Made by a program: the position numbers and the translations under genes. This document shows positions 8,887-57,209 of a stretch of DNA of 64,000 nt, piece by piece (positions within the stretch are counted from its first letter, which is position 1; each line of letters opens with the position of its first letter). The notes below the pieces were generated by a model. That model saw only the letters and a program-made list of their open reading frames with translations, had not been told where the DNA came from and did no database searches. Source of the stretch: Planctomycetota bacterium (GTDB lineage: Bacteria; Planctomycetota; UBA1135; JACQFD01); NCBI GenBank assembly GCA_016200225.1, contig JACQFD010000025.1, positions 23,184 to 87,183 on the forward strand. Direction: 5' to 3'.

Positions 8887-9166
8887 GATGCAAATCAATT
8901 GGTCCGAGGAAGTGGATCCAGTCGACACACGATTCGAGCCGCCGCGTGCTGACGCGACGCTTCGAAGGATCTGTCCATCGACAACTGTCAAATCGAGTGC
9001 CCGGCAGGCGACATGTACAACCAACAGATCCCGCCCGCGGCACTCGGGCAAGCGGCCCACCCCGCGCCTTAATAAACATCAAGGCCTTGGACATTCAGAT
9101 CGGACGCGCCGCCGCGTTATTTTTGCATCCGATTTGAATCGCGCGGGCTCATAGGGTTTCACAGCC

Positions 9167-11876: not shown

Positions 11877-13505
11877 TTACTCCGCAATCATTGACTTTTC
11901 AGGCGTCGCCTCGGGCGGCTCGGGACGCTCGATCTCGGTCGGCCGCCGGCCGGCGGCGGCTTCGCGATCGAGGATCGCGAGCGTGTGATCATACAGTTCT
12001 TCGACTTGGTCGCGGCTGTTCGCGATCGCGGTCATGCCGAGTTTTCCGTATTGGGAAACGGCGCCGATCAAATGAAACAATACGCCGGATTCGCTGCGGT
12101 GATTGTAGTGAAGCTTGTCCAGCGTTAATATATCAATAATGTCCTCGGGCAGCAGTCCGCGATAATCCGGCGAACTTAAATTATCCGTCGCTTTATAATA
12201 TTTCGCCTGGCCGGATTGCGAATAGAACAATCCCGTTCCCGGATCGAGCTGGCCGCCGGTGAGGAATTGTAATGCAAGAAACGGATGCGTCGTGCCGCCC
12301 ATGCGAAGATTGATTTCGAGCGCGCACATGTTCCAATCGCGGCGGTCGTTCTCGCGCCAGACGAGAAAATCGACGCCGAAACGGCTCATGACGCCGTGGC
12401 GCGCGAGCACGTCGCCGACGCGCGCGCCGGCGTTTTGTATACGAATTCGATACTGATCCTGCGCCGGAAACGTGCACCCGAGAAAAACCTGTCCGCCCGG
12501 GCCGCCGAGAATTTGATCGTGCGTCGAAATAATCGAAACTTCCTGCTTCGGACTCACGCGAACCTGCGCGCTGGGCGATCGTTTTTCGTTCGCTTCGACG
12601 AATTCTTCGGCGATGCCGCCCATTTTAGTAAATTTACCGAAATACGAATCGTACGATTCGGTTTTTACGGCAAATTCGACGGCATCGAGCGCGCGCCGCA
12701 TGGAATCTTTATCTTTGCGCTCGGGATAACGAAAAAGCGCGTTGCCCTCGCCGCTGAAACTTTCATTTAATTTAACGACTGCGCGCTTCGCCTCGGGCCG
12801 TTTGCCGCGGATGTCGGCGAGCGCTTCGACGACCTCGTCGGTCGATTTTAAATCTTCGGCGCCTTCGGGAAGGGGAATTTCGGCCTCGCGAAAAACTTTG
12901 CGGCTGCCGCTCTTCGTCCCCAAATCGCACAATTGCGGATCGACGCCGTTCATCGGAATTCCAAGCAGCGCCGAGAGCCGCCGTTCGAGCGGCGTCGAAT
13001 TGAATACTGTTAAATACGCGCGATTCTTATCATCGATGCCGTCGCGGATTCGCTGGATCAGGCGCGGGCGCTCGAGAATTTTCTCGGTCAGCGAACGCGG
13101 CGACGCGTCGTACGCGCACAGGAGCGTGAGGCGCGCGCGCGCGTGGCTCGCCGGGATGCCCGCGAGAAACTGAAAGTAATATTCCAGAATCATCGGATGA
13201 ACGGGCTGCGATGTTACGTAAACCATCCGCGCCCTCGGATTGCGCAGGCGTATCAGTAAAAATAACAATCTTTCTTCATAAAACGACGCGCCGGCGATTT
13301 TTTGCAATTCCGACTGGTCGAGCGTCAGCGACGGAACGACGACGGATGTGTAGGCTTCTTCGTCGCGCGACATCACGGTCTGCCACATGACCTGCAGTCG
13401 CGGTTTCAGCGCCTGAAATGACGCCATCTCCTCTTCGAGGGACATCTGCCAGGGAAACGGAGGCTCGACGGAGGACATGGGGGGCGCGGTCCGCCCGGCA
13501 GTCAA
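11877..13505 (-). CDS. PGM1-related ATP-grasp peptide ligase family protein
   Basis: VVVPSLTLD...YEERLLFLL, VVKLNESFSGEGNA, SPSAQ, HDQILGG and EINLRMGGTTHP. Confidence 0.8.
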   Translation of the reverse strand: MTAGRTAPPMSSVEPPFPWQMSLEEEMASFQALKPRLQVMWQTVMSRDEEAYTSVVVPSLTLDQSELQKIAGASFYEERLLFLLIRLRNPRARMVYVTSQPVHPMILEYYFQFLAGIPASHARARLTLLCAYDASPRSLTEKILERPRLIQRIRDGIDDKNRAYLTVFNSTPLERRLSALLGIPMNGVDPQLCDLGTKSGSRKVFREAEIPLPEGAEDLKSTDEVVEALADIRGKRPEAKRAVVKLNESFSGEGNALFRYPERKDKDSMRRALDAVEFAVKTESYDSYFGKFTKMGGIAEEFVEANEKRSPSAQVRVSPKQEVSIISTHDQILGGPGGQVFLGCTFPAQDQYRIRIQNAGARVGDVLARHGVMSRFGVDFLVWRENDRRDWNMCALEINLRMGGTTHPFLALQFLTGGQLDPGTGLFYSQSGQAKYYKATDNLSSPDYRGLLPEDIIDILTLDKLHYNHRSESGVLFHLIGAVSQYGKLGMTAIANSRDQVEELYDHTLAILDREAAAGRRPTEIERPEPPEATPEKSMIAE

Positions 13506-13587: not shown

Positions 13588-14409
13588 TTATTCTTTGTGT
13601 TTTCGTGGCGCGACGACCGGGCTGTCGATCAGTTTTTGAATGTTTGGATTAGCCTGCTCACGCATCCACGACTCCAAAATCGCATGCGCGCCGGGCTCCC
13701 GCGACAATTTGAGTCCCTGCGCGAGCGCCCAGCGGACTCCGTTGTTCGTCGTGGAATCGGAAAGCAGCGCCGCGACGTCCTCCAACGTTCGATCGCTTGC
13801 GTTGGCGGCAACGGCGCGCCCGGCGAAGACTCGGACCTCTTCGGAGCAACCGTCTCGAAGTGCAATATTAGAAATCAGAAATTCCTCGACAACGAGTTCG
13901 CCCAACGGGAGCGCGGCGATCGATTCGCTGCACGCATCGACGTCGAGCGGACACAATCCGGCGGCGACATCGCGAACAAAATCGACAAGCGATGGCGAGA
14001 GGCGCCCGTCCGGATTTTTTAGTAATTTTTCCGCCGATGCGAGACGCAATTCGGCCGACGCTAATTGTAATGTTCGCGCATTGCGCGCCGTCGGCGCCGC
14101 ACGGAGCGCGAGGGGTCGAACATGGTTAACAATCTGTTCGGTGCGCGCCGGCTCGTCCGTTAATTGTAATGTTTGCGCGCCGGGCTCTACAACTTTGTAC
14201 TCTTGATTGGGTATCAGTGAAACTGTGTCGTCGGCCGAAATTTGAACGGCGCTTCCGCCTGTGCCTGAGAGTGAAAATGCCACTGCCGCGGTGGCGAGTA
14301 CAGCCACCGCGACAGTGAAGATGATGCGCGAGCGCTTCCGCAGATTTGCTGAGTGTCGGACGCGAAGCGCTCGCGCAAGGAAGAGATCGTCCGGTACTCG
14401 CTTCAACAC
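13588..14409 (-). CDS. Membrane-anchored hypothetical protein with C-terminal HEAT-like repeats
   Basis: Starts 5 nt after the large cytochrome stop; N-terminal TM helix; EEVRVFAGRAV and GVRWALAQGL are HEAT-like. Confidence 0.6.
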   Translation of the reverse strand: MLKRVPDDLFLARALRVRHSANLRKRSRIIFTVAVAVLATAAVAFSLSGTGGSAVQISADDTVSLIPNQEYKVVEPGAQTLQLTDEPARTEQIVNHVRPLALRAAPTARNARTLQLASAELRLASAEKLLKNPDGRLSPSLVDFVRDVAAGLCPLDVDACSESIAALPLGELVVEEFLISNIALRDGCSEEVRVFAGRAVAANASDRTLEDVAALLSDSTTNNGVRWALAQGLKLSREPGAHAILESWMREQANPNIQKLIDSPVVAPRKHKE

Positions 14410-14413
14410 GTCT

Positions 14414-17400
14414 CTAGTTCTCGTACCCTACCGGCGGCACATACGGAGCACCCACCGCAACACCCTTCAGGTCGAAGTAGGCAGCCTGAAGGATGTTCAC
14501 CGCGAATCCCGTATTGTGGATTCCGCCGCTATTATCATTCTTGTTAAAGTCATAGTCATACGCAGCCTTGTAGAGCTGCTCCCACCGAGCCTGCTGAGTC
14601 GGCGTGAGTGCATCCCAGTCGGTCTGTTGCGTAGTACCGGCACCCGCAGGTCCGGGGAAAGTTCGCGATGTACCAGCCGCGTTCACATAGGAGACCTTGC
14701 TGCCGAACGACAGTGTGTAGGGTCCGCCGCCGATTCCCTTGGGAAGGGCCGCGTCGTTGACGCCGGCAAGTACCTCGGTCAACAGTTGGGCCGCGATTCC
14801 GGCGACTTCCTTCTGGACAGTCTCGGTCACGCCATTCCCGTCATAGTCGGCCCGAGCAGTGAACTCGAAGTCCGGACTCGCCGGGTGGCACTGTGCACAC
14901 GCGTTGGTGTGGTACTTCGGAACAGAGGTAATCGTCCAGCTGGTCGCCTGAGTCGTAGCATTGAAATTCGCCGCGGCCGTCACGGTCAAACTGTATCCGC
15001 TGTTCACGGAATTAATAACATAAGTGCCGGCATCGGAACCATTGGCAAGTGTGAGCTTGTCGCCGACAACGACCCATGTCAGGAAACTTGCTCCAGTCGA
15101 AACGGTGAACAACTTGGTACCCGCGGTCACGACGCCACCTGTATGTGTGGTCTCGTTTGCGACGAGTTTATTGTTGCCTTGTCCGTCTCCGCCCTGCGAC
15201 ATGTTCCAAGTGTGACTGCCCAAAGCCTGATACCCTGACTGTCCAGAGGTTGGCGCGGCATTCATGTGACATGTGATGCAACGCGCGTTCTCAGTCTGGC
15301 CGGGGACGATGAACTTACTATCGAGTCCATGCGGCGCGGATTTGTAGTTCCAACCCGGATAACGAACCGCGTTCGCCATCGTTAACATTTCCGCCGCGGT
15401 GCTATCGTGTGGCGCAACGCGAGTCGCCATGAAGCCTGTGCCAGGGGTGTAGTCCGTAGTATCTTTTCGACTCTGGTGGCACATGAAACATGCCGCTGCG
15501 CGACCTGCTTCGACCACTGTGCCGTCCATGAACTTCACTTGACCGATCAGACGGAGTTGTTGGCTTGAGCCACCTTCCGGTGTGCCCTCCGTAGGCTTGT
15601 GCGGATTGTGACACACGGCGCAGGACTGTGCGCGACGCTGCTCTTCCGGAACCGGTGGCAGTCCCGAAGGATCATTTGAAGAGAATACTTTGCGCGGCGC
15701 CGGGAGCGCTGCGCGAATCTTCATAGCCTCCACGGATCCCGACGCCTCGTGACATGGGATGCATGAAGAGTTGCCGCCTGGAGATACTACAACTTTCGCG
15801 TGTGCCGACAGATCCCACTGTGTCGGAAAACTGTGGCAGCGCGCGCAGACGCCTTCGTCATAACTCTTGCGAATACCCTTGGTGTCACCAATGTGCTGGC
15901 TGCCCGGTCCATGGCAGGCCTCGCATTGAACATTTGTAAACGCAGCGACGTCCGGGTGGTTATTCTTAAGATCGTCCCAAGTCAGGCCGACATGGTTGAA
16001 ATTCGCGACAGTTGCGCGATCGTCGAATCCCGCGTTCGAATAACTACCGGTCGAAGTGCTCGTGGAAGCGACAAGCGTGGTGAATGGTTGCGATGCATCG
16101 AACTGATTGGAGTAGCTGGTGCCAACACCTGTGTTGTGGAAACTGGTGAAAGTATTAATATCGCGCCAGTCTTCCTTGGCTTGAAACGCCGGCCAATCCG
16201 CGTCGGCTGGATCCATGGCTTCCTTGAGTACTCGAGAGTGCAGTGTTCCCTGCCACTCTTCTCGCATGTTCTCGAGGAAATTGATACTGCCTCCGTGGCA
16301 CGAACCACACTGGCCTTTCGCGGGATCCGGAGCCGTTCCCACGATTGTACCCACGCCGACATACTGTCCAACTGTAATGAAGAACGAGTAGTTATCGACG
16401 GTCGAACCGATGCCTCGAACGAGCACTACCGTGTACTGTCCGAGTTTCGTCGGAACAAAGAAAGGAGTCTGTTCCGTTGTCGACGAACCGAGTGCTGTCT
16501 TGTCGGGACGCGAGAGTGAAACCGAAGCGCCGGATGGATCGGTAACGTCCCAGTTCCAGTAGTCGGCGACCCACGCCTGATAGTCGAAGCCATTGGTCTT
16601 CGGACTGGTGTTGTCGCTCGCGTGTACCCAGAGAGTACCCGCGCTCCAGTACCACGATCCGGGAGTCGCCTCGACGAGTGCGACGGATGTCACTTGGACG
16701 ATGGGCTTTGTCTTCTCGCGCATCGAGCGAACGGTGGCCGCCTCGGCAATCTTGTAAGTGTACGTTTGTCCCGCTTCGAGAGCGAATGAAGAGGCGGACT
16801 CTTGCTTGCGGAATCCACCGCCGCTCAGGAACACCGGATCGCCCACCGCGACATTGTCAGTGCCATTGTTGGCCTGTCCGCAGCTCATGGTGACATCGTC
16901 CGAATCGGACACATCATCTGTAGTCGGAGCGGTGCCGACGTCGTCGGTGACCTTGATGTTGAATTGATAACGTCCCATCGCGGCGCTTCGAATTCCAAGA
17001 GTGCTTGGCTCGAGCGGAATAGGCAACAATGCTGGCAACTTGGGAGTTGTAAATGTGATCGTATTTGTAGTCGCGCCTGCGAGAGGCATTGCGGCCGGCG
17101 CGCCTGTCCATGAATAGGTCAATGCGCCCGTGGTAGTCCCGATGACGAGCGCGACAAGCGAATTGTTCGTTCCGTAACCGAGGAAGTACGGGAACTCATT
17201 CAGAATCGTCCAGCTCGCGGGCGTGGAACCGATGAAAGCCATCGGGCTATTCACTATCAGCGCGGTATTGCTGCTGACTTTATTAATTCTGTAAAAACCG
17301 TAGTCGACGCCGTCCAAAATAAACAATGTGTCGCCCGGTGCGACGCCCGATGCGATGAAGTTGGAGCCGCCCGTAATAGTAAAGTTCTTCGTTCCGGCCG

Positions 17401-17860
17401 CGGACGCGCCGCCTGTGGACGCCGTCTGCGACGCGCGGAACTTGCCCGCGCGGACGATGAACGGCCTGACGTGAACAGTAGCATTCGAAGTCGAGGACTC
17501 CGCGCCGTTTGAAACCGTCAATTGAAATGTCAAATCGCCGCTGACTCCGGGGGCGGTGAATGTCGGCGCGCCGGCAGTATTGTTAGAAAGGGCGACGGCC
17601 GGACCGCCGGTTTGCGTCCAAGAGAACGTCAGCGGTTTTCCGTTTTTATCATACGACGCGGTTGCATCGAGCCGGACGACGCCGCCGGGCGCGGCTTTCG
17701 CGGCTTGTCCCGCGGTGGCTATAACATTTGGCGATGTGACAGGCGGAGGAGCGGGCTTCGCGGCGGTGCCGCCTCCGCCCCCGCCGCAAGCGAACAATGC
17801 CAACGCTGCAAGACCCGATGATAAGAATAGACGGGAGTTTATGTTAAATTTAGCAATCAC
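14414..17860 (-). CDS. Large octaheme c-type cytochrome lipoprotein with PKD-like and accessory beta domains (putative cell-surface cytochrome)
   Basis: AGGAG RBS with GTG start; lipobox LFAC then a Gly linker; PKD-like LDATASYD..LTFSWTQTGGP; 8 CxxCH (CGSCH, CEACH, CARCH, CIPCH, CAVCH, CFMCH, CITCH, CAQCH); helical C-terminus with SGGIHN. Confidence 0.85.
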   Translation of the reverse strand: MIAKFNINSRLFLSSGLAALALFACGGGGGGTAAKPAPPPVTSPNVIATAGQAAKAAPGGVVRLDATASYDKNGKPLTFSWTQTGGPAVALSNNTAGAPTFTAPGVSGDLTFQLTVSNGAESSTSNATVHVRPFIVRAGKFRASQTASTGGASAAGTKNFTITGGSNFIASGVAPGDTLFILDGVDYGFYRINKVSSNTALIVNSPMAFIGSTPASWTILNEFPYFLGYGTNNSLVALVIGTTTGALTYSWTGAPAAMPLAGATTNTITFTTPKLPALLPIPLEPSTLGIRSAAMGRYQFNIKVTDDVGTAPTTDDVSDSDDVTMSCGQANNGTDNVAVGDPVFLSGGGFRKQESASSFALEAGQTYTYKIAEAATVRSMREKTKPIVQVTSVALVEATPGSWYWSAGTLWVHASDNTSPKTNGFDYQAWVADYWNWDVTDPSGASVSLSRPDKTALGSSTTEQTPFFVPTKLGQYTVVLVRGIGSTVDNYSFFITVGQYVGVGTIVGTAPDPAKGQCGSCHGGSINFLENMREEWQGTLHSRVLKEAMDPADADWPAFQAKEDWRDINTFTSFHNTGVGTSYSNQFDASQPFTTLVASTSTSTGSYSNAGFDDRATVANFNHVGLTWDDLKNNHPDVAAFTNVQCEACHGPGSQHIGDTKGIRKSYDEGVCARCHSFPTQWDLSAHAKVVVSPGGNSSCIPCHEASGSVEAMKIRAALPAPRKVFSSNDPSGLPPVPEEQRRAQSCAVCHNPHKPTEGTPEGGSSQQLRLIGQVKFMDGTVVEAGRAAACFMCHQSRKDTTDYTPGTGFMATRVAPHDSTAAEMLTMANAVRYPGWNYKSAPHGLDSKFIVPGQTENARCITCHMNAAPTSGQSGYQALGSHTWNMSQGGDGQGNNKLVANETTHTGGVVTAGTKLFTVSTGASFLTWVVVGDKLTLANGSDAGTYVINSVNSGYSLTVTAAANFNATTQATSWTITSVPKYHTNACAQCHPASPDFEFTARADYDGNGVTETVQKEVAGIAAQLLTEVLAGVNDAALPKGIGGGPYTLSFGSKVSYVNAAGTSRTFPGPAGAGTTQQTDWDALTPTQQARWEQLYKAAYDYDFNKNDNSGGIHNTGFAVNILQAAYFDLKGVAVGAPYVPPVGYEN

Positions 17861-17950
17861 GACAGGTGCTCCTATTCAATAAGGCGTCGAGAACGCCCGG
17901 ACATCATTGTAATAATTAGCTGGTTTCGGAGTTGAATAGCTTGTAATTGG

Positions 17951-17965
17951 TCAAGATCCGTGCCG
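17951..17965 (-). promoter_or_regulatory. Sigma-54-like -24/-12 element upstream of the surface cytochrome
   Basis: Minus strand reads CGGCACGgatcTTGA (GG-N10-GA, a variant -12). Confidence 0.45.
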
Positions 17966-18031
17966 CGATCGGCCGCTCGTCGATGGGAATCGTTTTCCAC
18001 GAGTCCTTGAAACATAAGAGGTTATGAAAGA

Positions 18032-18067
18032 CGCCTCCCGTCGCACTTTGCGATGTTTCGGGAGGCG
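18032..18067 (-). terminator. Hairpin, probable terminator after the HAO-like gene
   Basis: cgcctcccg...cgggaggcg 9-bp stem with an inner tcgca/tgcga helix, followed by TCTTT on the minus strand. Confidence 0.5.
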
Positions 18068-18142
18068 CCATTGACCTGTGTCATACGTGTGTCACGAAGC
18101 GCAACGACTCCGGACACATCGGTCTCGCCGCGCGGCGAAGCA

Positions 18143-19552
18143 CTATCGAACGTTTTGTTTATATCGATCCTGATAGAACTTCGTGATCTTCGCGCGGCTA
18201 TCGGCGCCCATGTCGGTCGGCCACGCGCTGCCCGAATCTTTTAGTGTACTTTCGATAAATTTTGAGACTTCCGGATTCGATTTCGCGAGATCCCGCGCCT
18301 GTTTCAGGAAATCTCCATAAAACGTGCGCGCCACTTCCGCGAAACCCTCCCATTGCGCGAACGACGGACCCATCATCGCCGAACCCATGCGCGCCTGGCG
18401 TCCATCGCGGTGCCATAGGAAATACCACGTCCACTCGATCGGGTCGTCGAACGGACTTTGTGTAATAAGTCCCGATTCCGCAAGTTTATCCATAATTTTG
18501 GTTCCCGGCTCGCCGAATCTGTTATTCCACAATTCGACGGCCGTGTCGTATTGTTTAAAATGGCCGTCGACCCACGCGGGCGAATGGCAATTTAAACAAA
18601 TGCTCTGCATGTTCACTCTGTTGACTTCCCAATCTTCGGGATGTACGGAAACGGGCGGCCGGCAATTCCACGCGATGCGCTGAGCAGTATTGTGAGTCAT
18701 CGGTTGATCGGGCGACGCGCTCATGTGACAGGTCGCGCACGTCGGCGCGGCGCTGTAATCGACCCCGACGACCCACTTTTTCTTATCGAGTTTCATCAAT
18801 CCCTGGCTCAGCGCATTGTTAAATGCGACGCCATGTTTGCTTTCTTCATAAATGCCTTCCTGCGGATGGTCCGGTCCGGTGTGGCACTTTCCGCACGCTT
18901 CGGGCCGCCGCGCCATCGATATATCAAATCGGTGTCTCGAATGGCACGCGGTGCACGCGCCGCGCGAACCGTCGGGGTTGATGCGGCCCATGCCGGTATT
19001 CGGCCACGCGCCCTCGGCGAACATGGGTTTGCCGTCGGATTCTTTAAGGATCTTTCCTTTATCATCCATTTGAAAATCAATCTTAACACCATGGCATTTC
19101 TGGCAGCCGACCGCCGCGGTGCCCTTGCCTTGCAACTTTTCCGCGAGCAGCGCGTCGATCGAACCGTCGACGTCGGCCGCGCGCGCGTGCGAGCTTTTCG
19201 AAAATTCATCGGCGATCTTTTCGTGACATCGCCCGCAGTCTTTCGGAGTGACAATGGTAGCGATCAGGCGTCCGTTGTGTTTCCACGCGTCGATGTCCTT
19301 TTCCTCGGCCTTGTGGCATTCGTAACATCCGATGCCGACTTCGCCATGGCGGCTGCCGATCCATTGGTTAACAATTGCGGGAGTCTTTTCCTTGTGGCAA
19401 TTATAACATCCGGTGCTTTCTTCCGAAAGCAACATTTCCGGCTCGGGTTTGAACCGCTGCTTGCCGCCTTCGACCCAGGCGACGATCAGCAGGGATCCCA
19501 GAAACACAATCGCCAGAATGGATACGATGATTTTCTTTGCGTCGATGGACAT
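18143..19552 (-). CDS. Hydroxylamine oxidoreductase-like octaheme cytochrome c, membrane-anchored
   Basis: 8 CxxCH; NTGMGRINPDGSRGACTACHSRH, CGKCHTGPDHPQ..IYEESKHG and APTCATCHM; N-terminal TM helix. Confidence 0.88.
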   Translation of the reverse strand: MSIDAKKIIVSILAIVFLGSLLIVAWVEGGKQRFKPEPEMLLSEESTGCYNCHKEKTPAIVNQWIGSRHGEVGIGCYECHKAEEKDIDAWKHNGRLIATIVTPKDCGRCHEKIADEFSKSSHARAADVDGSIDALLAEKLQGKGTAAVGCQKCHGVKIDFQMDDKGKILKESDGKPMFAEGAWPNTGMGRINPDGSRGACTACHSRHRFDISMARRPEACGKCHTGPDHPQEGIYEESKHGVAFNNALSQGLMKLDKKKWVVGVDYSAAPTCATCHMSASPDQPMTHNTAQRIAWNCRPPVSVHPEDWEVNRVNMQSICLNCHSPAWVDGHFKQYDTAVELWNNRFGEPGTKIMDKLAESGLITQSPFDDPIEWTWYFLWHRDGRQARMGSAMMGPSFAQWEGFAEVARTFYGDFLKQARDLAKSNPEVSKFIESTLKDSGSAWPTDMGADSRAKITKFYQDRYKQNVR

Positions 19553-19622
19553 GATGATGTTCCGAAAGTTTAATAAAATTTATGTTATATATTATAGTAA
19601 GAAATGAACGGGAACGCCGCGG

Positions 19623-20702
19623 TCACGCGATGGCCTCCCAAATCGTGAGCGCGATCAGCGTCGCGAATCCGATAATTCCGAGGAATATGGATATTTCGCT
19701 GTTCGGCCGTTTGCGGCGAATCGCCGCGTCGATGAACGGCCAGAAAAACAGCACGGCTCCCGCCATGCCGGTCGTGACGACGGCCGTTTCGAGACCGGTT
19801 AATTTTAGCCATCGGAATGTAAAGAAAAAATACCACTCCGGTTTGATGTGCATCGGCGGATTCAATGGATCGGCGCGCTCCGCGAGACCGGCGGGGAAGG
19901 CGCACGCAAGCGTATTCAATACAATCGTGATCGTTAAGAAAACGAGGCACTCCGTCAGCATGTGATCCGGAAAGAACGGAAACGATTTTCGGTCCGCGGC
20001 GCGCTTCGAATCGACTTGCGCGACGCCGTGGAGACGCACGAGAAATATATGCGAACAAAGTATCAAGAAAAGCGCCGTCGGCAGAATGCCGATGTGTAAT
20101 ACAAAGAATCGCGTCAGCGTGTTGTCCGAAATGTTATCGCCGCCGCGCAGTAGCGACGCGAGATATTTGCCGATGAGCGGCGTCGCGGCCGTCAGATTGC
20201 CCGCGACCGTCGCGCCCCAATAGGATAATTGTTCGTATACGAGCGAATATCCGGTGAATCCGAAGAATAGTGTAATTCCGAGAATCGCGACGCCCGCCAT
20301 CCACGTGAATTCGCGCGGTTTTCTGTAAGTTCCGGTGAAATAGACGCGCATCACATGTAATATTACAGATGCGATCATCAAATGCGAAGACCATCGGTGC
20401 ATGCTGCGGATCCACCAACCGAAGGTCACTTCCTCGGTGATCCTTTTTACGGAATCGTAGGCCCGGTCGGGCGACGGAACATAATAAAATGTCAATAAGA
20501 TCCCCGTCGTGACCTGCACGAGAAATAAATAAAGCGGCGTGCCCCCGAGCGCGAACCACCAACGCTTCAAATGTCCCGGTATCGGTTCGTTCAATCCCTC
20601 GACGAGGCCCTCGGATCGGATCGGAAGCCGCTCGGCGAAGAAACCCTTTTTTACAGTTCCTGCGGCCCCGGGCTCGCTTCCCGCGTGATTCGTAGTATGC
20701 AC
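19623..20702 (-). CDS. Cytochrome b of a Rieske/cytochrome b complex (b6 plus subunit IV-like)
   Basis: RSMHRWSSHLMI..LHVMR, TGYSL, SYWGATV, RFFVLH and the HIKPEWYF Qo-site motif. Confidence 0.93.
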   Translation of the reverse strand: MHTTNHAGSEPGAAGTVKKGFFAERLPIRSEGLVEGLNEPIPGHLKRWWFALGGTPLYLFLVQVTTGILLTFYYVPSPDRAYDSVKRITEEVTFGWWIRSMHRWSSHLMIASVILHVMRVYFTGTYRKPREFTWMAGVAILGITLFFGFTGYSLVYEQLSYWGATVAGNLTAATPLIGKYLASLLRGGDNISDNTLTRFFVLHIGILPTALFLILCSHIFLVRLHGVAQVDSKRAADRKSFPFFPDHMLTECLVFLTITIVLNTLACAFPAGLAERADPLNPPMHIKPEWYFFFTFRWLKLTGLETAVVTTGMAGAVLFFWPFIDAAIRRKRPNSEISIFLGIIGFATLIALTIWEAIA

Positions 20703-20704
20703 GG

Positions 20705-21178
20705 TCAGCCCTCCGTCAATGTAATATAAAGAGCGCTATCCACGGGTTGAATTTCATATTTCGCGAGGCGCTGGCCGGCTTTCGCGGGCGGACCCGAAAT
20801 GGCGACGCCGTTCACGTCGAAAACGCCGTTGTGGCACGGACAAATGAACTGTTTGGAGGATTCGTTCCAATGCACTTTGCAGCCGAGATGCGGGCAGACG
20901 TCCGAAAGCGCAGTGAATTGTTCCCCTGTATTCGTAATAACTACTTTTCGGCCGTCGGGAGAATTGTAAATTTTGCTCGTGCCGGCGGGAATGTCGTGGA
21001 CGCCGCCCGCGTAGGCTTTCCAAATCCTGGGCTTGCGATTCGGCGTCAAATATCGGAGCGCGTGCACCGCGGCCGTTCCATAGGATGCGGCGAGTCCGCC
21101 GATCATGATAATCCATGTCATCATTCCGCGCCGCGTCGGCTTTGGATTCGTAATATTTAGATCACTTGAGTTTGTCAT
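20705..21178 (-). CDS. Rieske [2Fe-2S] subunit
   Basis: Tat-like TRRG plus TM helix; CPHLGC and CPCHNG boxes. ATG at 21178 overlaps the upstream gene end. Confidence 0.93.
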   Translation of the reverse strand: MTNSSDLNITNPKPTRRGMMTWIIMIGGLAASYGTAAVHALRYLTPNRKPRIWKAYAGGVHDIPAGTSKIYNSPDGRKVVITNTGEQFTALSDVCPHLGCKVHWNESSKQFICPCHNGVFDVNGVAISGPPAKAGQRLAKYEIQPVDSALYITLTEG

Positions 21179-22583
21179 GAATCGCCTCGAGGTCTTTGTC
21201 CGCCTGATCAAATATCGACTCGGCGTAGGGGAAATTGTGCGCGGCGTGGCCGAGTTTCACTAATGCAAGATTGGCTTCGACAGTCTTAATAAGCGTCGCC
21301 GCGGCATTTTTATTTGTATCGGCGCCCTTGTACGCGTCGAAGCTCTTGCGCGCTTCCTCGAGTTTCGCCGCGATCTCGCCGCCGCGTTCGGAACCGAAGG
21401 ATTTCCAGCCTTCGAGAATGTCGCCGAAACCTTTGTCGTGGCATTGATCGCAGGACTTCGCGTCGGCGGTTAATACTAATTCTCCGCCGTTGTGCTTGAG
21501 CGTCATGTGGCATGCGAGGCAGCCCGCGCGAACCTTAAACATGGGGCTCTTGATCGCCTCGACCTCGTGCGCGCCCGTGCCCGCGAACATCTTGCGTTGA
21601 TTTGTATGATGATTCGGATGGCAGGTCTCGCAGGAAGTCTCTTTTTCGACCCAGTCCTTTTCCAATGAATGCCGGATCTCAAGATGGCAATCCTGACAAT
21701 CGATCGTCATTTCGCGGACGTGTTTTTGATGGATGAATTCCTTGTCGCCGATCCGCGAAAGATTATCCAGCGAATTGTGACATTGCATGCAGCGTTGCTT
21801 CGGCGCGTGTCCGGTGCCGCCGTTCAGCCCCGCGTGACAACTCTTACAATCGACCGGAGACTTCTCGATTTTCTTATGATCGAACGTGCCGCCGTCGATC
21901 TTAACAATTCCGGGCGCCTCGTGGCAAAGTGTACATTTCGAACGCTCGGGAGGCGCGTCCGATCTCAAATGGCAGAGCGTGCACGCGTCGCGATTCACCG
22001 TCATGTGTTCGTCGCGGAGTATTTGTGTATGACAACTCGCGCACGTCAAAAAAGATGTAAACTGCGCGGCCGGCGTGCTCGCGACGCCCGCTTTCGCCGC
22101 GGCGGCGGCGAGGTGTTTCTCATGATTAAACTTGGATTTAAATTTAGAATTCTGCGCCGTCGGAATCAGGCCTTCGAGCGAATGACATCCGGAGCGCATG
22201 CATGACTCGTCGCGGATATGTGCAAACGGTTTCGGGCCCTGCGTCCCCGTGAAATATAAAGCAACCTGCGAAATCGCCGCAATTTTGCCGGAGATGAATC
22301 CCTCCATTCCGGGCGGGAAGTGGCACGCGATGCATGTAACATTTTTGTGCGATCCCTTCTTCCACGAATCGTAATAAGGCTGCATGTAATGGCAGCTCGT
22401 ACAGAACTCCGGGCGCGACGAGTACATCATCAATCCGCCGGCGCCGGCCGAAAGGACCACCGTCGCGCCCAGCGCGATTTTCAGCGCATGAATGGTAAAT
22501 ATTGCCCCGCACACCCATCCAAAGATGCGCGCAACGAGGCGCTTCCTGGGCATCGCCGGTTTGGTGTCCGCGGGTTTATTCAT
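21162..22583 (-). CDS. NapC/NirT-type membrane-anchored multiheme cytochrome c (11 CxxCH plus one CX4CH)
   Basis: TM helix then SRPEFCTSCHYM..YYDSW..GSH..VTCIACH (NapC/NirT N-terminus), CMRSGCH and nine further CxxCH. Confidence 0.85.
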   Translation of the reverse strand: MNKPADTKPAMPRKRLVARIFGWVCGAIFTIHALKIALGATVVLSAGAGGLMMYSSRPEFCTSCHYMQPYYDSWKKGSHKNVTCIACHFPPGMEGFISGKIAAISQVALYFTGTQGPKPFAHIRDESCMRSGCHSLEGLIPTAQNSKFKSKFNHEKHLAAAAAKAGVASTPAAQFTSFLTCASCHTQILRDEHMTVNRDACTLCHLRSDAPPERSKCTLCHEAPGIVKIDGGTFDHKKIEKSPVDCKSCHAGLNGGTGHAPKQRCMQCHNSLDNLSRIGDKEFIHQKHVREMTIDCQDCHLEIRHSLEKDWVEKETSCETCHPNHHTNQRKMFAGTGAHEVEAIKSPMFKVRAGCLACHMTLKHNGGELVLTADAKSCDQCHDKGFGDILEGWKSFGSERGGEIAAKLEEARKSFDAYKGADTNKNAAATLIKTVEANLALVKLGHAAHNFPYAESIFDQADKDLEAIHDKLK

Positions 22584-22614
22584 GATCGGTTATTGTTAGA
22601 ATAATAAAACGAAA

Positions 22615-22635
22615 GCCTGGCGACGCGCGCCAGGC
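22615..22635 (-). terminator. Intrinsic terminator-like hairpin inside the cytochrome cluster
   Basis: gcctggcg-acgcg-cgccaggc 8-bp stem followed by TTTCGTTTTATTATT on the minus strand. Confidence 0.6.
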
Positions 22636-22700
22636 GCCGGAAACTTATAATGTTCGGCCGCGACGCGCGCGGCCGGAGAGTCCATTCCCAACCCTATATA

Positions 22701-23303
22701 TTATTTCTTTTCCTTTTCGGGATTCTTGTGCGCGATTTCCTTATAAAACTTCTGGAAATCGAATTCCTTATAATTTGGGGAATCTTTGTTATGGCACTTG
22801 ATGCAGGTCTTCTCGTCGGGAATGATAATACCTGCTTTTTTGCCCAGATCGCGGCTCTTGGCGTGAACGTCTTCTTTGTGATATTCGCTGCCGGGACCGT
22901 GGCATGCTTCGCAGCCGATGCCTTCGGTTTTCTTAAACGTCGCTGCGAATTCCTCGGTTTTCGAACCGTAACCGGTGGAGTGGCATTTCATGCATTGATC
23001 GCTCTTCTGCGGATCTTCGATCTTTAACTTTTCGCCGATGGCTTTCGCTTCGGGCGACGCGAGCACTTCATAAGCTTTCGCGTGCTTGGTCTTTTTCCAG
23101 ACCATGTACGCCTCGCCGGTCGTTTTCTTAATATGGCAAAGTTTGCACTTGTCGACGCCGATGTATTGCCGCACGTCCGCGGGTTTGGAATCCTGGCCCG
23201 ACAGATAAATGCATGCATTAGCATTGGCCGGCCTTGTCTGCGCCGTCGCGAAGGCAATTCCGGCCGCGATGGTAATAATTCCGAGGATGCGCCTTGTTAA
23301 CAT
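22701..23303 (-). CDS. Cytochrome c554-like tetraheme periplasmic cytochrome
   Basis: Signal peptide from ATG 23303; YIGVDKCKLCH..W..TKH, CMKCHSTG, GIGCEACHGPGS and CIKCH. Confidence 0.87.
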   Translation of the reverse strand: MLTRRILGIITIAAGIAFATAQTRPANANACIYLSGQDSKPADVRQYIGVDKCKLCHIKKTTGEAYMVWKKTKHAKAYEVLASPEAKAIGEKLKIEDPQKSDQCMKCHSTGYGSKTEEFAATFKKTEGIGCEACHGPGSEYHKEDVHAKSRDLGKKAGIIIPDEKTCIKCHNKDSPNYKEFDFQKFYKEIAHKNPEKEKK

Positions 23304-23320
23304 GATATTGACCAATAAGT

Positions 23321-24331
23321 TTAGTGATGGCAGATAGTACAATTCTCGCCGTTGTCGGCGTGAATTAATAGATTCGGCAGGTGGCACGACCGGCAATCGG
23401 CATTCGGACCGGGGTGCGGAGGAGGAGGACGGTGCGGCGCCGACAGATGGGCCGGCGTCGATTTGTGACATGCCGAACAACCGTTCGCGCTGAGTGGTTC
23501 ATGACAGGAAAAACAGTGCGCGGAAAATGTGCCGCCCCACGCGCCGAGGTGGTTCGAAGGACGCACTTCCGAGTGGCATCGTATGCAACTATCTTCGCGA
23601 TGGCACGTCCCGCACGCCTCGCGGTCGAGTTCGGCCTCGCCCGCGTGGCCGCGCTGCCGCCAGAATTCATTATGATTCGCCGGCGGCGTTTCCGCGTGGC
23701 AACGCTCGCACGAATGATCCGATTGGGGACCGTGGCAAATTAAACATTTCCCTTCGGCGAGCGCGTCGGATGAGCCGCGCACGTCGCGTCCGTGAAGTTT
23801 AAGAAACGCCGCGTTGTGCGACGGCGGCCGCGCGTCCTCTCGAATATTATTATGACAACTCGCGCAGTCGGTCTTGCGGCCCTCTTTCGCATGACACGCG
23901 ATGCACGCGTCCATTTTTACAATAACCGATTCGTCGAGATCGGTGGATTGTTCGACGTCGCCGTGGCAGTCGGCGCATTTATACATTTTCGCGACGTGCG
24001 TCTTGTGCGAAAACTTCAAATCGACGAGTTTGTTCCATTCCGGAAACTTCAATTCGGTCGACGCTACAATTACTTTTTCGAAATCCTTCGGCGTCTTGTC
24101 CGGCTTGATGTCGTGGCATGTGATGCACACGTCGCGGCTCGGCATTCCCGCGCGGTCCTCGGATTCCGCGTCCGAGTGGCACGCCTCGCAGGTCATTTCC
24201 TTTTTGATATGTGTGGCGTGCGAGAACGGTATGTCGCGCTTGCGGCCCGCCACGAGATTGACGATCACGCACCCCGCGCACAGCGCCGTGCTGAGGCAGG
24301 TGACGATAATGAGCAGGGTTCGGAGTCGCAT
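23321..24331 (-). CDS. 13-heme c-type cytochrome (cytochrome c3-like motifs), probable lipoprotein and porin partner
   Basis: 13 CxxCH; FSH.TH c3-like motifs; lipobox-like CAGC; start overlaps the porin stop. Confidence 0.87.
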   Translation of the reverse strand: MRLRTLLIIVTCLSTALCAGCVIVNLVAGRKRDIPFSHATHIKKEMTCEACHSDAESEDRAGMPSRDVCITCHDIKPDKTPKDFEKVIVASTELKFPEWNKLVDLKFSHKTHVAKMYKCADCHGDVEQSTDLDESVIVKMDACIACHAKEGRKTDCASCHNNIREDARPPSHNAAFLKLHGRDVRGSSDALAEGKCLICHGPQSDHSCERCHAETPPANHNEFWRQRGHAGEAELDREACGTCHREDSCIRCHSEVRPSNHLGAWGGTFSAHCFSCHEPLSANGCSACHKSTPAHLSAPHRPPPPHPGPNADCRSCHLPNLLIHADNGENCTICHH

Positions 24332-25779
24332 TAGAATCGAATGATAAGATTAAAATCCGCGACGTGATACTCGCCGAGCGAGTCGGACTCGAAACGGTAA
24401 CCCGCACCGATGGAAATCCGTTCGGATAATTTAACTTTTCCGCGGAGCGCATATTCGCGGCTGCGGAAACGCTCTTCGCCGAGAATATAATCGAGGCGAT
24501 ATAACGTATAATCGGTCGATGCTTCAATTCGGGCGGTCTTGCCGAAACGTTTTTCGATGCTCACACCGCCGCCGCCGGTGTTGACACTGTTGCCGTCGAA
24601 GAGGTCGCCCCGGACGGAAACGGCCACGTCTTCGATCGGAAACGGATCGAGCGTCAGCACGGCGTACACCTGATCGAATTCATGATTAAAGAGTCCCTCG
24701 CTGGTGCCTTCGAGCAGCCGCCGGATGCGGTACCCGGCGCCGAGCTCGGCCGGTTTGAAAAGCGTTTTTGATGCATTCAACCGGCCTTCCAGATATGGAT
24801 GATAATTGCCGAGGACGCCAACCATCGGCGAAAACTCGGTCGCCGGAAGATCTGTAAAATCGTTTTGGCGGAGAATTTCGCCGCTCGCGCGGAAACCCGC
24901 GTCGCTGTCCGCGTAATTCAAACTGAAGTTTTCGCGGCGCTCCTTCGTGTCGAGCATCGAGTACGAGCCGCGCGCCGTCAGCGTTTTAAGCGGATGCCAT
25001 TCGGCGCCGAAAACGCTCAGCAATTCTTCGACGCGATCGGGCAACCCTGCGATTTGCCGTCGGTCGCGCATGTAAATTTCGTCGATTGTAAATGTTAACG
25101 TTTTCGACGCGTGCAGTTTGACGCCCGTGCCCGCGACGACGTCGCCCTCGGCCGAAGCTTCATAAAAATGCACGGGGACGCCGCCGTAGAACGTGAACGA
25201 TGCGGGGCCGACGCGCTTCGTCTCGAGGTACGCGCCGTCGAAGCGAATCCCTTCTTCGCGCCAGAGCATCTGCCGGCCGACGCGGACGTTTGACAACGGA
25301 CCGCCCGGGTTTGCCTCGGCGAACGCTTCATAAAGATAACTATGGAATCTTGAATTAAAGGTTTCCGAGAGACCGAAAAACGGACTTCCGTTCTGTGGAA
25401 AATCATTAACATCCAGAATCGCCGAACCCGAGAGTCGGAAATGGAGCCCTTCTTTACCGATATTGGGAATTGTCAAGTCGAGGCCGAGCGAACCGAAAAC
25501 GTCCTGATCCTTGACCCCGGTCGGACTGCTGCGCAATCGATAGCGCAAATCGAAATATCCGTCGAGTTTCATGCCCGCGACCTTGGCCGCGGGAGATTTG
25601 TCGGTCTTTGCTCCGTCGTCAGTTTTTATGTCGGCGGCTGCGGGGCGCGATGGCGCGGACTCGGGCGTTGCGGGCGCCGTTTGCTGTTTCTCAATTTTTG
25701 CATCCTGTCCAAGCGCAACGCCGACCCACACGCAGGTCGAAGCGATTATTAATGAAAAGCGAGTGTTGCGCGGTCGCAT
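24331..25779 (-). CDS. Outer-membrane beta-barrel (porin-like) protein
   Basis: Signal peptide, alternating amphipathic beta strands, VRVGRQ..FDGA motif and C-terminal Phe (FNLIIRF); translationally coupled to the multiheme gene. Confidence 0.75.
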   Translation of the reverse strand: MRPRNTRFSLIIASTCVWVGVALGQDAKIEKQQTAPATPESAPSRPAAADIKTDDGAKTDKSPAAKVAGMKLDGYFDLRYRLRSSPTGVKDQDVFGSLGLDLTIPNIGKEGLHFRLSGSAILDVNDFPQNGSPFFGLSETFNSRFHSYLYEAFAEANPGGPLSNVRVGRQMLWREEGIRFDGAYLETKRVGPASFTFYGGVPVHFYEASAEGDVVAGTGVKLHASKTLTFTIDEIYMRDRRQIAGLPDRVEELLSVFGAEWHPLKTLTARGSYSMLDTKERRENFSLNYADSDAGFRASGEILRQNDFTDLPATEFSPMVGVLGNYHPYLEGRLNASKTLFKPAELGAGYRIRRLLEGTSEGLFNHEFDQVYAVLTLDPFPIEDVAVSVRGDLFDGNSVNTGGGGVSIEKRFGKTARIEASTDYTLYRLDYILGEERFRSREYALRGKVKLSERISIGAGYRFESDSLGEYHVADFNLIIRF

Positions 25780-26580: not shown

Positions 26581-27258
26581 TTATTTCTTTTTCCGCGGCT
26601 CGTCGGCGCGGAGCGTTCGAAGTTCCGCGACCGGACAGTCGGGACCCGGAATTAAATATTCATCGGGTCGCAGAATTCCGTCTTTTCGGAGATTGTTTAA
26701 ATTGTATTCCCGAATGTCTCCGTTCGCGAACAAAACTACAGTAACGAATTGATGATTTGGCGTGGGATCCGTTGGATCCAAGGCAAATTGATTATCATCG
26801 GCGACGAGAGCCTGCGCGCTTGGATTTTTATCAATATCGGGATACGTCTCGAGATCCCGGCCGGCGTAGCCGGTGTATGTGCCGTCGACTGCGTCCCAAT
26901 CGTCGAACCAATTCGAAGGTCTGCGACCTCGGATACCCGTTAACAATTGGTGGCGAATTCCCGGGCAGGTGAACCGCTTTGCAAACGTATCATCTTGCAC
27001 GGTCGGGTCCACGCGCCACAAAGATAAGAAAAACTTGACGCCGGATTCCTTGGGCCAGTCGCGGAATCGCAACTTGTATTGTATTAAATCTTTATACAAT
27101 TCGCTTAAGTTAGCCCTGCAGGCCTCCACGTTCGCTTTGTCGATCGCCCCCGGAATTTTCTGGACGTACACCGCAAAAACAAGCACGGGAATCAAGAACA
27201 GAGCCAATATCACAATGGCTCCAATAATAACTATTTGTTCCGAATACTTGGCGCCCAT
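26581..27258 (-). CDS. Pseudopilin/type II secretion-like protein (planctomycete prepilin-like)
   Basis: N-terminal hydrophobic helix, ACRANL..L, FTCPG and NH..VTVVLFANG (H-X9-DG-like). ATG at 27258. Confidence 0.6.
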   Translation of the reverse strand: MGAKYSEQIVIIGAIVILALFLIPVLVFAVYVQKIPGAIDKANVEACRANLSELYKDLIQYKLRFRDWPKESGVKFFLSLWRVDPTVQDDTFAKRFTCPGIRHQLLTGIRGRRPSNWFDDWDAVDGTYTGYAGRDLETYPDIDKNPSAQALVADDNQFALDPTDPTPNHQFVTVVLFANGDIREYNLNNLRKDGILRPDEYLIPGPDCPVAELRTLRADEPRKKK

Positions 27259-27387
27259 ATTATTTATAATGTCAATCGAAGAACGCGAAGATGTCGCGAT
27301 CGCCGCGAGGCGAAACGAAATGGTAGCGATTGCGCGATTCGAGGTTGCAAGAAAAGACGGCCGGTCGTGGTCCGCCATTGACGTCGC

Positions 27388-38048: not shown

Positions 38049-38079
38049 AATTTGGGTAAAAAGAGGATTTATTTGTAAG

Positions 38080-41711: not shown

Positions 41712-41746
41712 ATTCGCAACGCTCAAGAGCGAAGGGGGGTGGGTTA

Positions 41747-57005: not shown

Positions 57006-57209
57006 GGGAAACGGAATCGCAAACGTTGTACCGCGCGTCCCGCGCGCCGGAGTCGAGGCGGCGCTTGCGTCTCCGCCGCTCGGGCGAAACGCGCCGCGGA
57101 CGCGCGAGCGCGGACAAATCCTTCGGAGTGGGCGCCTTTCCCGAATGGCCGCAACCGCGGTAGGATGTCGAAATCGACGTCCGCAGACCCCCCTGAATCG
57201 AGGAATTCC

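Follow-up and report, generated by a model that had tools for sequence, protein, structure and literature searches.

Soils, sediments and wastewater harbour abundant Planctomycetota, and anaerobic respiration outside the anammox lineage of the phylum is poorly understood. Could one of its members encode, in a single locus, an electron path from the quinone pool to the cell surface? The question is raised by a cluster of cytochrome genes at 13588-25779 of a stretch of 64,000 nt from Planctomycetota bacterium (assembly GCA_016200225.1, contig JACQFD010000025.1, positions 23,184-87,183 of the forward strand), which we call the window and whose own numbering is used below. An initial annotation of these letters had reported nine co-directional genes with about 45 heme motifs, and this inventory was borne out: nine open reading frames (ORFs), all on the minus strand, carry 44 CXXCH motifs and one CX4CH (from upstream to downstream 0, 13, 4, 11 plus the CX4CH, 0, 0, 8, 8 and 0). 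The genome comprises 5.31 Mb in 40 contigs and holds 18 stop-to-stop frames with at least three CXXCH motifs, and since five of them fall in the cluster its heme-motif density is far above chance. Our comparison of sequences points to a modular electron-transfer system of two units of different origin, and we give roughly even odds (a probability of about 0.5) to its being a menaquinol-to-surface electron path with outward flow to extracellular acceptors. The features of the cluster are, from upstream to downstream:

24331-25779, minus strand: predicted outer-membrane beta-barrel, porin-like, 482 residues, no heme motif (AlphaFold2 model, Foldseek)
23321-24331, minus strand: 13-heme c-type cytochrome, 336 residues, predicted lipoprotein and partner of the barrel (13 CXXCH)
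22701-23303 (ORF to 23480), minus strand: tetraheme cytochrome, c554-like, with signal peptide, putative periplasmic shuttle (PF13435)
22615-22635, minus strand: terminator-like GC-rich hairpin (8 pairs, 7 of them GC) followed by a T-run, in the gap between the 4-heme and 12-heme genes
21162-22583, minus strand: membrane-anchored 12-heme cytochrome, 473 residues, candidate quinol dehydrogenase (PF03264)
20705-21211, minus strand: Rieske [2Fe-2S] protein with a twin-arginine-like N-terminus (PF00355)
19623-20702, minus strand: cytochrome b, b6 type fused to a subunit-IV-like C-terminus, 359 residues (PF00033, PF00032)
18143-19552, minus strand: octaheme cytochrome of the HAO family, IhOCC type, membrane-anchored at its N-terminus, 469 residues (8 CXXCH, PF13447)
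14414-17860, minus strand: octaheme lipoprotein, 1148 residues, candidate surface cytochrome (lipobox, PKD domain, 8 CXXCH)
13588-14409, minus strand: membrane-anchored protein, 273 residues, with a sub-threshold HEAT-repeat match (HEAT_2, 25.1 bits)

The stop codon of the barrel gene overlaps the start of the 13-heme gene by 1 nt, the Rieske and cytochrome b genes are 2 nt apart and the lipoprotein gene and the last gene 4 nt. Two longer gaps, of 117 and 282 nt, lie between the 4-heme and 12-heme genes and ahead of the lipoprotein gene respectively.

A barrel-cytochrome pair and its associated cytochromes

The protein at 24331-25779 had been put forward as a large beta-barrel. No Pfam or NCBIfam model matches it, and its sequence shows a signal peptide, a disordered Pro/Ala-rich N-terminus of about 63 residues and a C-terminal Phe. 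Modelling from the single sequence gave a predicted local distance difference test score (pLDDT) of 29 and we used instead an AlphaFold2 model built on an alignment of 115 rows, which reached a pLDDT of 84.9 and a predicted template-modelling score of 0.80. The secondary structure of this model contains 22 beta-strands across residues 70-481, in agreement with the initial annotation. A Foldseek search with the model returned outer-membrane barrels (18-strand OccK/OprD porins, AlgE and ushers) at E values of about 1e-9 and template-modelling scores of 0.36-0.50, and among the matches listed none was an MtrB structure. As modelled, the protein is a barrel of the generic outer-membrane kind and not a member of the Mtr family. 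A word-index homologue search found 4 related proteins, and a full HMMER profile search of 1.84 billion representatives showed a large family with 757 relatives at an E value of at most 1e-3 and 369 at 1e-30 or below. In a sample of 401 Planctomycetota genomes, 243 of them of high quality, the barrel profile matches 87 of all genomes and 57 of the high-quality ones. Full-length matches in genomes of the anammox family have E values of about 1e-82 to 1e-90.

The barrel does not come alone. Directly after it stands a homologue of the 13-heme cytochrome in all of the 30 best barrel loci, with 13 CXXCH motifs in 28 of these, 12 in one and 17 in one. The same adjacency holds in 66 of 66 loci of a wider set that partly overlaps with the 30 and consists of all barrel-profile matches in the 401 genomes that cover most of the model and lie outside the anammox family, with up to 9 kb on each side; fragments in four genomes (G290, G318, G077 and G332) are omitted from it. 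ORFs in these foreign loci were called with simple scripts and their start codons are approximate. The 13-heme protein itself matches generic multiheme domains only, with a QrcA-/ActA-like N-terminus, and a lipobox Cys follows the signal peptide in the protein of the window and in 34 of 35 homologues.

This pair has a published counterpart. Shi, Fredrickson and Zachara (2014) described in Kuenenia stuttgartiensis a two-gene porin-cytochrome (Pcc) cluster, kuste4024/4025, of a porin-like protein and a cytochrome of 338-344 residues with 12-14 hemes (PMC4245776; this source and the others below are cited from partial text). One family of our sample (f35) was called anammox because hydrazine dehydrogenase exceeds its cut-off in 4 of the 4 genomes tested. 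In two genomes of this family the barrel is followed by a 14-heme lipoprotein of 338 or 343 residues and the two genes stand alone, a match to the published description from which we take them to be kuste4024/4025. The barrel of the window is 24% identical to those of the two anammox genomes and the cytochrome 31-33%. On these sequence comparisons the pair is homologous to the anammox cluster and belongs to the known Pcc class of the two-gene Kuenenia/Anaeromyxobacter type.

A complex prediction was run for barrel residues 64-482 with cytochrome residues 30-336, hemes omitted. It gave scores of 0.54, 0.36 and 0.57 (median 0.54), and the best of three controls scored 0.02. The runs share at least 71% of contacts and the partner pLDDT is at least 64. 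Of 80 solved complexes 58 reach the mark used for this score, as do 2 of 110 mismatched pairs, and scores of 0.60 or less include only 7 of the 80 solved complexes yet both mismatches that passed. The prediction thus read lends weak support to a complex of the 13-heme cytochrome with the barrel.

Three further cytochromes accompany the pair. The 4-heme protein, with 4 CXXCH motifs, matches PF13435 (cytochrome c554-like) at 60.5 bits. Its ORF is probably over-called at the 5' end and we place the true start at residue 60, giving 22701-23303, because a signal-peptide-like N-terminus begins there. Of the 66 loci, 37 have a tetraheme homologue no farther than about 9 kb from the barrel (E value of at most 1e-8, the threshold for all such counts in this set). 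The 12-heme protein combines an N-terminal membrane helix and a heme domain of the NapC/NirT/NrfH type (PF03264 over residues 33-188, 44.6 bits against a cut-off of 24.1) with eight further hemes appended. It matches the NrfH structure 2j7a at 5.2e-8 and is not an NrfH equivalog (TIGR03153, 58.5 bits against a cut-off of 134.2). Homologues occur in 45 of the 401 genomes and near the barrel in 5 of the 66 loci. The third, the protein of 1148 residues, has a lipobox and a Gly/Pro-rich tether ahead of a PKD domain, and its 8 hemes lie in a C-terminal domain; lipobox and Gly-rich linker recur in 6 of 6 homologues. Its heme domain is found in 6 of the 401 genomes, within 3 kb of the barrel-13-heme pair in 4 of the 5 other than that of the window, and near the barrel in 6 of the 66 loci. 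A sequence search of the PDB gave nothing beyond a short match to OcwA, a surface cytochrome (6i5b, 2.6e-5), and in the protein atlas the best score of 0.81, below the level that counts, went to generic NrfA/c554-like multihemes only. We regard the PKD-bearing octaheme lipoprotein as a candidate surface cytochrome that is probably exposed to the outside.

The genome holds a second cytochrome cluster elsewhere (G000:C22:27610-35773, which is L062:4611-12774), whose co-directional genes encode a 24-heme protein of 627 residues, a protein of 572 residues with no Pfam match, a 26-heme protein of 807 residues and a 4Fe-4S and pyridine-nucleotide-disulphide oxidoreductase of 749 residues.

The Rieske/cytochrome b/octaheme triplet

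The second unit of the cluster consists of three genes. The Rieske protein matches PF00355 at 44.3 bits and both [2Fe-2S] boxes, CxHxGC and CxCH, are readable in the translation. The cytochrome b matches PF00033 at 179.9 bits and, at its b6f subunit-IV-like C-terminus, PF00032 at 35.4 bits. Two His pairs can be read in it, the second with b6-like spacing, and no Cys stands at the heme-ci position, with ligand and heme-ci positions as we presume them to be. Its best NCBIfam match is Geobacter ExtP at 214.9 bits (1e-63), under the cut-off of 290. The octaheme protein has 8 CXXCH motifs and matches PF13447, the HAO-family multiheme domain, at 88.4 bits. Its closest solved relative is IhOCC of Ignicoccus hospitalis (PDB 4qo5, 3.6e-45), with structures of HAO, HAO-like proteins and HDH far behind (4e-18 to 2e-14), and it is not a hydrazine dehydrogenase (NF052343, 74.1 bits against a cut-off of 900).

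The P460 cross-linking tyrosine marks the oxidising HAO and HDH enzymes, and the alignments of our protein to HAO structures stop at its residues 366-382, ahead of the region where this tyrosine would be expected. In every one of 24 aligned octaheme sequences the sixth heme motif is followed by an unchanged GPDHPQ motif; this carries an Asp-His pair which we take to be the one over the catalytic heme of HAO, and the alignment with IhOCC shows Asp-Val at this position. The octaheme is probably still an enzyme, to judge from this conservation. From gene order only we presume that it serves as the c-type subunit of the Rieske/cytochrome b module, where it would replace cytochrome c1 or f.

A scan for the octaheme in 185,579 species genomes yielded 23 loci. 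Rieske and cytochrome b genes lie directly upstream in 14 of these, a fifteenth (L001) has cytochrome b at its start, where the contig is cut, and the remaining 8 show no Rieske/cytochrome b upstream, two of them having less than 300 bp of upstream sequence. The cytochromes b of the triplets are 50-77% identical to that of the window. Apart from the triplet itself, nothing of the cluster is found at 1e-5 in 12 of the 14 triplet loci, and none of these 12 has a barrel nearby. The labels of the metagenome-assembled genomes (MAGs) with such stand-alone triplets read Planctomycetota, Acidobacteriota, Thermoanaerobaculia, Vicinamibacterales, Deltaproteobacteria, Polyangia, Omnitrophota and Epilinea, and the phyla represented include Chloroflexota and Myxococcota. 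The triplet is a separate module, widespread across phyla. It had initially been recognised as a pairing known from anammox Brocadiales; the triplet is real, and the anammox attribution gives way to this wide distribution and to the closeness of the octaheme to IhOCC. Within the phylum sample the octaheme is matched at 1e-40 in 106 of the 401 genomes, and only in the genome of the window (G000) and in one other (G141) is it close to the barrel.

Relatives of these genes are present elsewhere in the same genome. A second HAO-like octaheme (G000:C9:7490-19365, L061), 44% identical to that of the window, has no adjoining Rieske or cytochrome b gene. About 5 kb from it lies a set that looks to be of the Nxr/Nar type, with a molybdopterin subunit of 1154 residues, a 4Fe-4S subunit and an EB_dh subunit with two cytochrome c domains. 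The other Rieske/cytochrome b pair of the genome (G000:C12:143885-150424, L063), at 30% and 38% identity, is followed by an 8-heme protein of 1309 residues with cytochrome c and FixO-like domains and is probably the main bc-type complex of the cell.

Joining of the two units and direction of electron flow

Are the two units together by chance? The order barrel, 13-heme, 4-heme, 12-heme, Rieske, cytochrome b, octaheme and lipoprotein recurs in full in two further Planctomycetota MAGs (L002 and L003), and in a third (L001) for the three genes that its contig reaches. Identities to L002 and L003 are 44-45% for the barrel, 57-58% for the 13-heme, 63-72% for the 4-heme and 56-58% for the 12-heme protein, 63-71% for the Rieske protein, 76-77% for cytochrome b, 71-73% for the octaheme and 54-56% for the lipoprotein. 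The flanking genes differ between the window and the L001-L003 loci, and the same order within different flanks implies that the eight genes travel as a unit. Co-conservation of the set had been proposed for nine genes and extends to eight of them. The ninth, initially described as HEAT-like, gave no tblastn match at 1e-5 in L001-L003 and its HEAT_2 match of 25.1 bits is under the cut-off of 27.7, and we therefore dropped it as a component of the cluster. The upstream gene of 315 residues (26581-27528) and the downstream ATP-grasp gene (11877-13505, minus strand, with a PGM1-type C-terminus) were considered as components and rejected, neither having a match in L001-L003. At this downstream end a B12-binding radical SAM protein is also encoded (7345-9060, minus strand), and neither it nor the ATP-grasp gene is conserved beside the cluster in the related MAGs. 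The MAG of L003 contains in addition a lone triplet (L005) whose octaheme is 54% identical to that of the window.

The wider set of 66 barrel loci shows that modules facing the quinone pool have joined the pair more than once. Cytochrome b is found near the pair in 7 loci and Rieske in 5, with one weaker Rieske match (L117/L127). The seven loci (L058, L066, L067, L068, L069, L107 and L117/L127) belong to seven families, and their cytochrome b, at 25-47% identity to that of the window, represents another module; Rieske stands alongside in six (none in L107), and a 9-heme gene directly follows cytochrome b in six, L058 being cut by the contig start. The richest example is L067 (G099:C1:2010000-2029000), where barrel, 13-heme and 4-heme genes are followed on the same strand by two tandem Rieske/cytochrome b/9-heme sets, a 16-heme NrfH-like protein and an 11-heme protein. 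By gene position the HAO-type octaheme of the window clade occupies the place held elsewhere by the 9-heme protein, and we tentatively read the cytochrome b modules as recruited independently to the same barrel pair. An HAO-like octaheme lies near the pair in two of the 66 loci, L059 (40% identity) and L075 (24%). At L059 the tetraheme and HAO-like genes stand divergently beside the pair, and no Rieske or cytochrome b gene was found within the 13 kb examined.

Other inner-membrane partners are found just upstream of the barrel. These are fusions of a multiheme domain to cytochrome b561 (Ni_hydr_CYTB) in L034, L053 and L058, which we read as CbcL-like, a NapC/NirT protein in L051, and proteins with MtrC-like domains in L037 and L043. 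CymA, CbcL and ImcH are the quinone-pool partners known for the Shewanella and Geobacter conduits. As judged from gene neighbourhoods, the barrel pair has thus been combined more than once with modules of the inner membrane that face the quinone pool, and among these are NapC-like and CbcL-like ones and two different cytochrome b modules. The Shewanella and Geobacter conduits show the same pattern (in part PMC6295460).

How could electrons pass through such a system? The proposal starts from what is read directly in the genomes, namely which genes are present, how strictly barrel and cytochrome are paired, where lipoboxes occur and how the modules repeatedly lie together, along with the modelled barrel fold. 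From these we infer the physical contacts, surface exposure, substrates and direction of flow. One unit would be the Kuenenia-type porin-cytochrome set with the tetraheme shuttle, the 12-heme quinol dehydrogenase and the octaheme lipoprotein, and the other a Rieske/cytochrome b6-type complex with the membrane-anchored HAO/IhOCC-type octaheme in place of cytochrome c1/f. Menaquinol would be oxidised at the inner membrane either by the Rieske/cytochrome b module, with a Q cycle and conservation of energy, or by the 12-heme NrfH-like protein. The octaheme and then the tetraheme shuttle may relay the electrons to the 13-heme cytochrome within the barrel, and this to the octaheme lipoprotein. The final acceptor would lie outside the cell and have a fairly high potential; Mn(IV), Fe(III) and humic substances are examples. 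The catalytic-looking pocket of the octaheme may offer a second, periplasmic outlet to nitrite, nitric oxide (NO) or hydroxylamine. We favour outward flow because the flanks look heterotrophic and by analogy with known reducers. The flanking genes that the initial annotation had listed are present, with a GH78 gene at 46615-49350, M14 peptidases at 38080-41726 and an S9 peptidase at 57165-59651.

Several observations weigh against this outward path. Rieske centres are usually at positive potentials and ill-suited to low-potential Fe(III) oxides. The genome carries two heme-copper oxidase genes above the family cut-off and no cytochrome bd match, and with these oxidases any extracellular respiration would be facultative. 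The barrel is matched neither in the one other genome of the genus in the sample (G271) nor in the one of the family (G191). The complex score lies in the weak range, and the barrel, into which a 13-heme chain would have to fit, has 22 strands where MtrB has 26. No part of the cluster reaches the NCBIfam cut-off of a characterised Mtr family, the 13-heme protein scoring 18.6 bits against MtrA/DmsE (TIGR03508, cut-off 192.2) and 16.4 bits against MtrC/OmcA (TIGR03507, cut-off 209.3). The invariant GPDHPQ motif suggests an enzyme rather than a mere wire, and most triplets stand by themselves. Finally, the terminator-like hairpin at 22615-22635 is a possible boundary between two transcription units, and together with the 282-nt gap it means that the cluster may be read as two or three transcripts. 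The scan for hairpins, promoters and terminators found 26 against 20.0 +/- 4.5 in shuffles, that is not above them, so that the position of this hairpin is a lead only.

The same parts could also run the other way. In this arrangement, which we consider unlikely, electrons would enter by way of the barrel, the 13-heme cytochrome and the lipoprotein, supplied from outside by Fe(II), by reduced minerals or humics, by a cathode or by a partner cell, and the tetraheme would pass them to an octaheme that reduces periplasmic nitrite, NO or hydroxylamine. The Rieske/cytochrome b and NrfH-like modules would tie this node to the quinone pool, acting as a second donor or else running backwards for reducing power; Rieske/bc complexes do run in reverse in acidophilic iron oxidisers. 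An invariant GPDHPQ motif would suit such a reductase, IhOCC has been described as a nitrite reductase (PMC9250108) and a Rieske/cytochrome b set with epsilon-Hao in Caldithrix has been proposed for nitrite reduction (PMC5317091). The nearness of the second HAO-like gene of the genome to an Nxr/Nar-type molybdoenzyme and the L059 arrangement, with tetraheme and HAO-like genes but no Rieske/cytochrome b found, point the same way. The flanking genes speak for a heterotroph, and nothing in the sequence fixes the direction. Nor do the CbcL-like and NapC-like modules joined to the pair elsewhere decide it, since such modules serve metal reducers and oxidisers alike.

It is also conceivable, if improbable, that two neighbours share the locus and exchange no electrons, one a porin unit of barrel, 13-heme, 4-heme and perhaps 12-heme and lipoprotein, the other a self-contained quinol:N-oxide reductase of Rieske, cytochrome b and octaheme. 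Each can clearly be found without the other: the stand-alone triplets were counted above, the pair is alone in anammox genomes, no cytochrome b turned up in 59 of the 66 barrel loci, and an HAO-like gene close to the barrel is confined to two of the 401 genomes. The hairpin, too, would separate the 4-heme from the 12-heme gene. Against independent neighbours stands the position of the triplet, between the 12-heme and lipoprotein genes, both of them linked to the barrel pair elsewhere. This exact order is kept at 44-77% identity in L002 and L003 with different flanks, and a second, unrelated cytochrome b module has come to stand beside the pair in 7 of the 66 loci, in seven families.

We would hold as similarly improbable a dual role, in which the octaheme is at once the c-type subunit of the Rieske/cytochrome b complex and the junction to the trans-outer-membrane conduit and so couples nitrogen-oxide chemistry to solids. 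In one form nitrite, NO or hydroxylamine reduction would be driven by Fe(II) or reduced minerals; in another Fe(III) or Mn(IV) would serve as acceptor for the oxidation of hydroxylamine or a related compound, in the manner of Feammox. A third port would then be the quinone pool, and the same barrel pair would have been wired independently to two cytochrome b modules within the phylum. That the barrel admits a soluble oxyanion (selenite, tellurite or another metalloid) for reduction by the cytochromes, as proposed for ExtI, is very improbable: the Geobacter ext cluster with its ExtI, implicated in selenite and tellurite reduction, has the same layout (PMC5877670), the cytochrome b is ExtP-like at 1e-63 and the Foldseek matches of the barrel are substrate porins and exporters, but the 66 of 66 pairing with a lipoprotein 13-heme cytochrome better fits a barrel-cytochrome complex, ExtP and ExtQ remain under their cut-offs, and no rhodanese domain was found in the nine proteins scanned, where standard-code ORFs would miss a selenocysteine gene.

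The outward path remains our preferred reading. With an enzyme-like HAO-family octaheme at the junction, the cluster is a candidate for connecting metal or humic redox chemistry outside the cell with that of nitrogen oxides in a heterotroph, and it bears on the role of the widespread and uncharacterised Rieske/cytochrome b/octaheme triplet. If it is only a metal- or humic-reducing conduit, it would be one more among the growing number of porin-multiheme systems of uncultured phyla.

Elsewhere in the window, two genes at 9167-11863 (plus strand) and 30090-33635 (minus strand) encode proteins of 898 and 1181 residues with an N-terminus of the extracytoplasmic-function sigma-70 type (regions 2 and 4) and arrays of carboxypeptidase-regulatory-like domains. 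At 35184-38201 (minus strand) a protein of 1005 residues has matches to a lactonase-type beta-propeller and to di-heme cytochrome c peroxidase (MauG-like) and is followed by two M14 carboxypeptidase genes. At 22-2259 (plus strand) a protein of 745 residues has both a cytochrome c match and a ThuA (trehalose utilisation) domain.

Comparison with known conduits and quinol modules

The initial annotation had likened the cluster to the OmbB-OmaB-OmcB and MtrCAB layouts. The logic is the same, with a barrel, a multiheme cytochrome, a lipoprotein cytochrome and a quinol dehydrogenase of the NapC/NirT type. By sequence the proteins do not qualify as members of these families: besides the 13-heme protein, the lipoprotein also falls short of TIGR03508 (30.8 bits, cut-off 192.2), and on these NCBIfam cut-offs we rejected the label of Mtr homologue.

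The porin-cytochrome core is closer to that of Kuenenia, the barrel adjoining a cytochrome of 336 residues and 13 hemes. Unlike the anammox pair, which stands alone, that of the window lies within a cluster of four more cytochromes and a Rieske/cytochrome b module, and its cytochrome is a predicted lipoprotein whereas the Kuenenia partner is called periplasmic in the available text of PMC4245776. Hydrazine dehydrogenase gave no match at 1e-100 in the genome of the window. With this and with an octaheme nearer to IhOCC, the description as an anammox-type system was rejected.

Among uncultured bacteria, syntenic and divergent porin-multiheme clusters of Acidobacteriota and Verrucomicrobiota in peat have been read as extracellular-electron-transfer machinery (bioRxiv 10.64898/2026.05.27.727921). 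These belong to other phyla, and the words Rieske and octaheme have 0 occurrences in the main text of that work. Pcc genes have been flagged in Planctomycetota MAGs (PMC10732223). In the literature searched we found no published planctomycete cluster that joins the barrel pair to a Rieske/cytochrome b module, and no published HAO/IhOCC-type octaheme at a porin-cytochrome junction, though supplementary tables (for the former those of PMC10732223 and PMC7188810) may list such loci.

The triplet has its nearest described counterparts in Cabys_2558-2556 of Caldithrix abyssi, where Rieske/cytochrome b genes lie next to epsilon-Hao (PMC5317091), and in the anammox Rieske/cytochrome b (R/b) complex R/b-3, which with Kuste4574 is proposed to pass quinol electrons to nitrite (PMC12485887). 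Like these, the window encodes Rieske, cytochrome b and an HAO-family octaheme together. Unlike them, as far as the available parts of both sources describe these systems, it adds a putative outer-membrane conduit in the form of the barrel pair.

In overall layout the cluster is closest to extHIJKLMNOPQS of Geobacter sulfurreducens, as given in the available text of PMC5877670. The ext cluster encodes the porin-like ExtI, 5-, 12- and 10-heme cytochromes, the Rieske protein ExtO, the cytochrome b ExtP, the subunit-IV-like membrane protein ExtQ and the lipoprotein cytochrome ExtS, and its function is only partly known. The joining of two modules in one locus, as initially proposed for the window, therefore stands but has precedents, in ext (PMC5877670) and in 7 of the 66 planctomycete barrel loci. 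In the window the ext equivalogs stay below their thresholds (ExtP 214.9 bits against 290, ExtQ 17.3 against 150). The two clusters have in common a porin, multiheme cytochromes, a Rieske protein, an ExtP-like cytochrome b and a lipoprotein cytochrome. They differ in that the octaheme of the window is of the HAO/IhOCC type, that its barrel is partnered by a 13-heme lipoprotein, and that the proteins scanned here carry no rhodanese domain.

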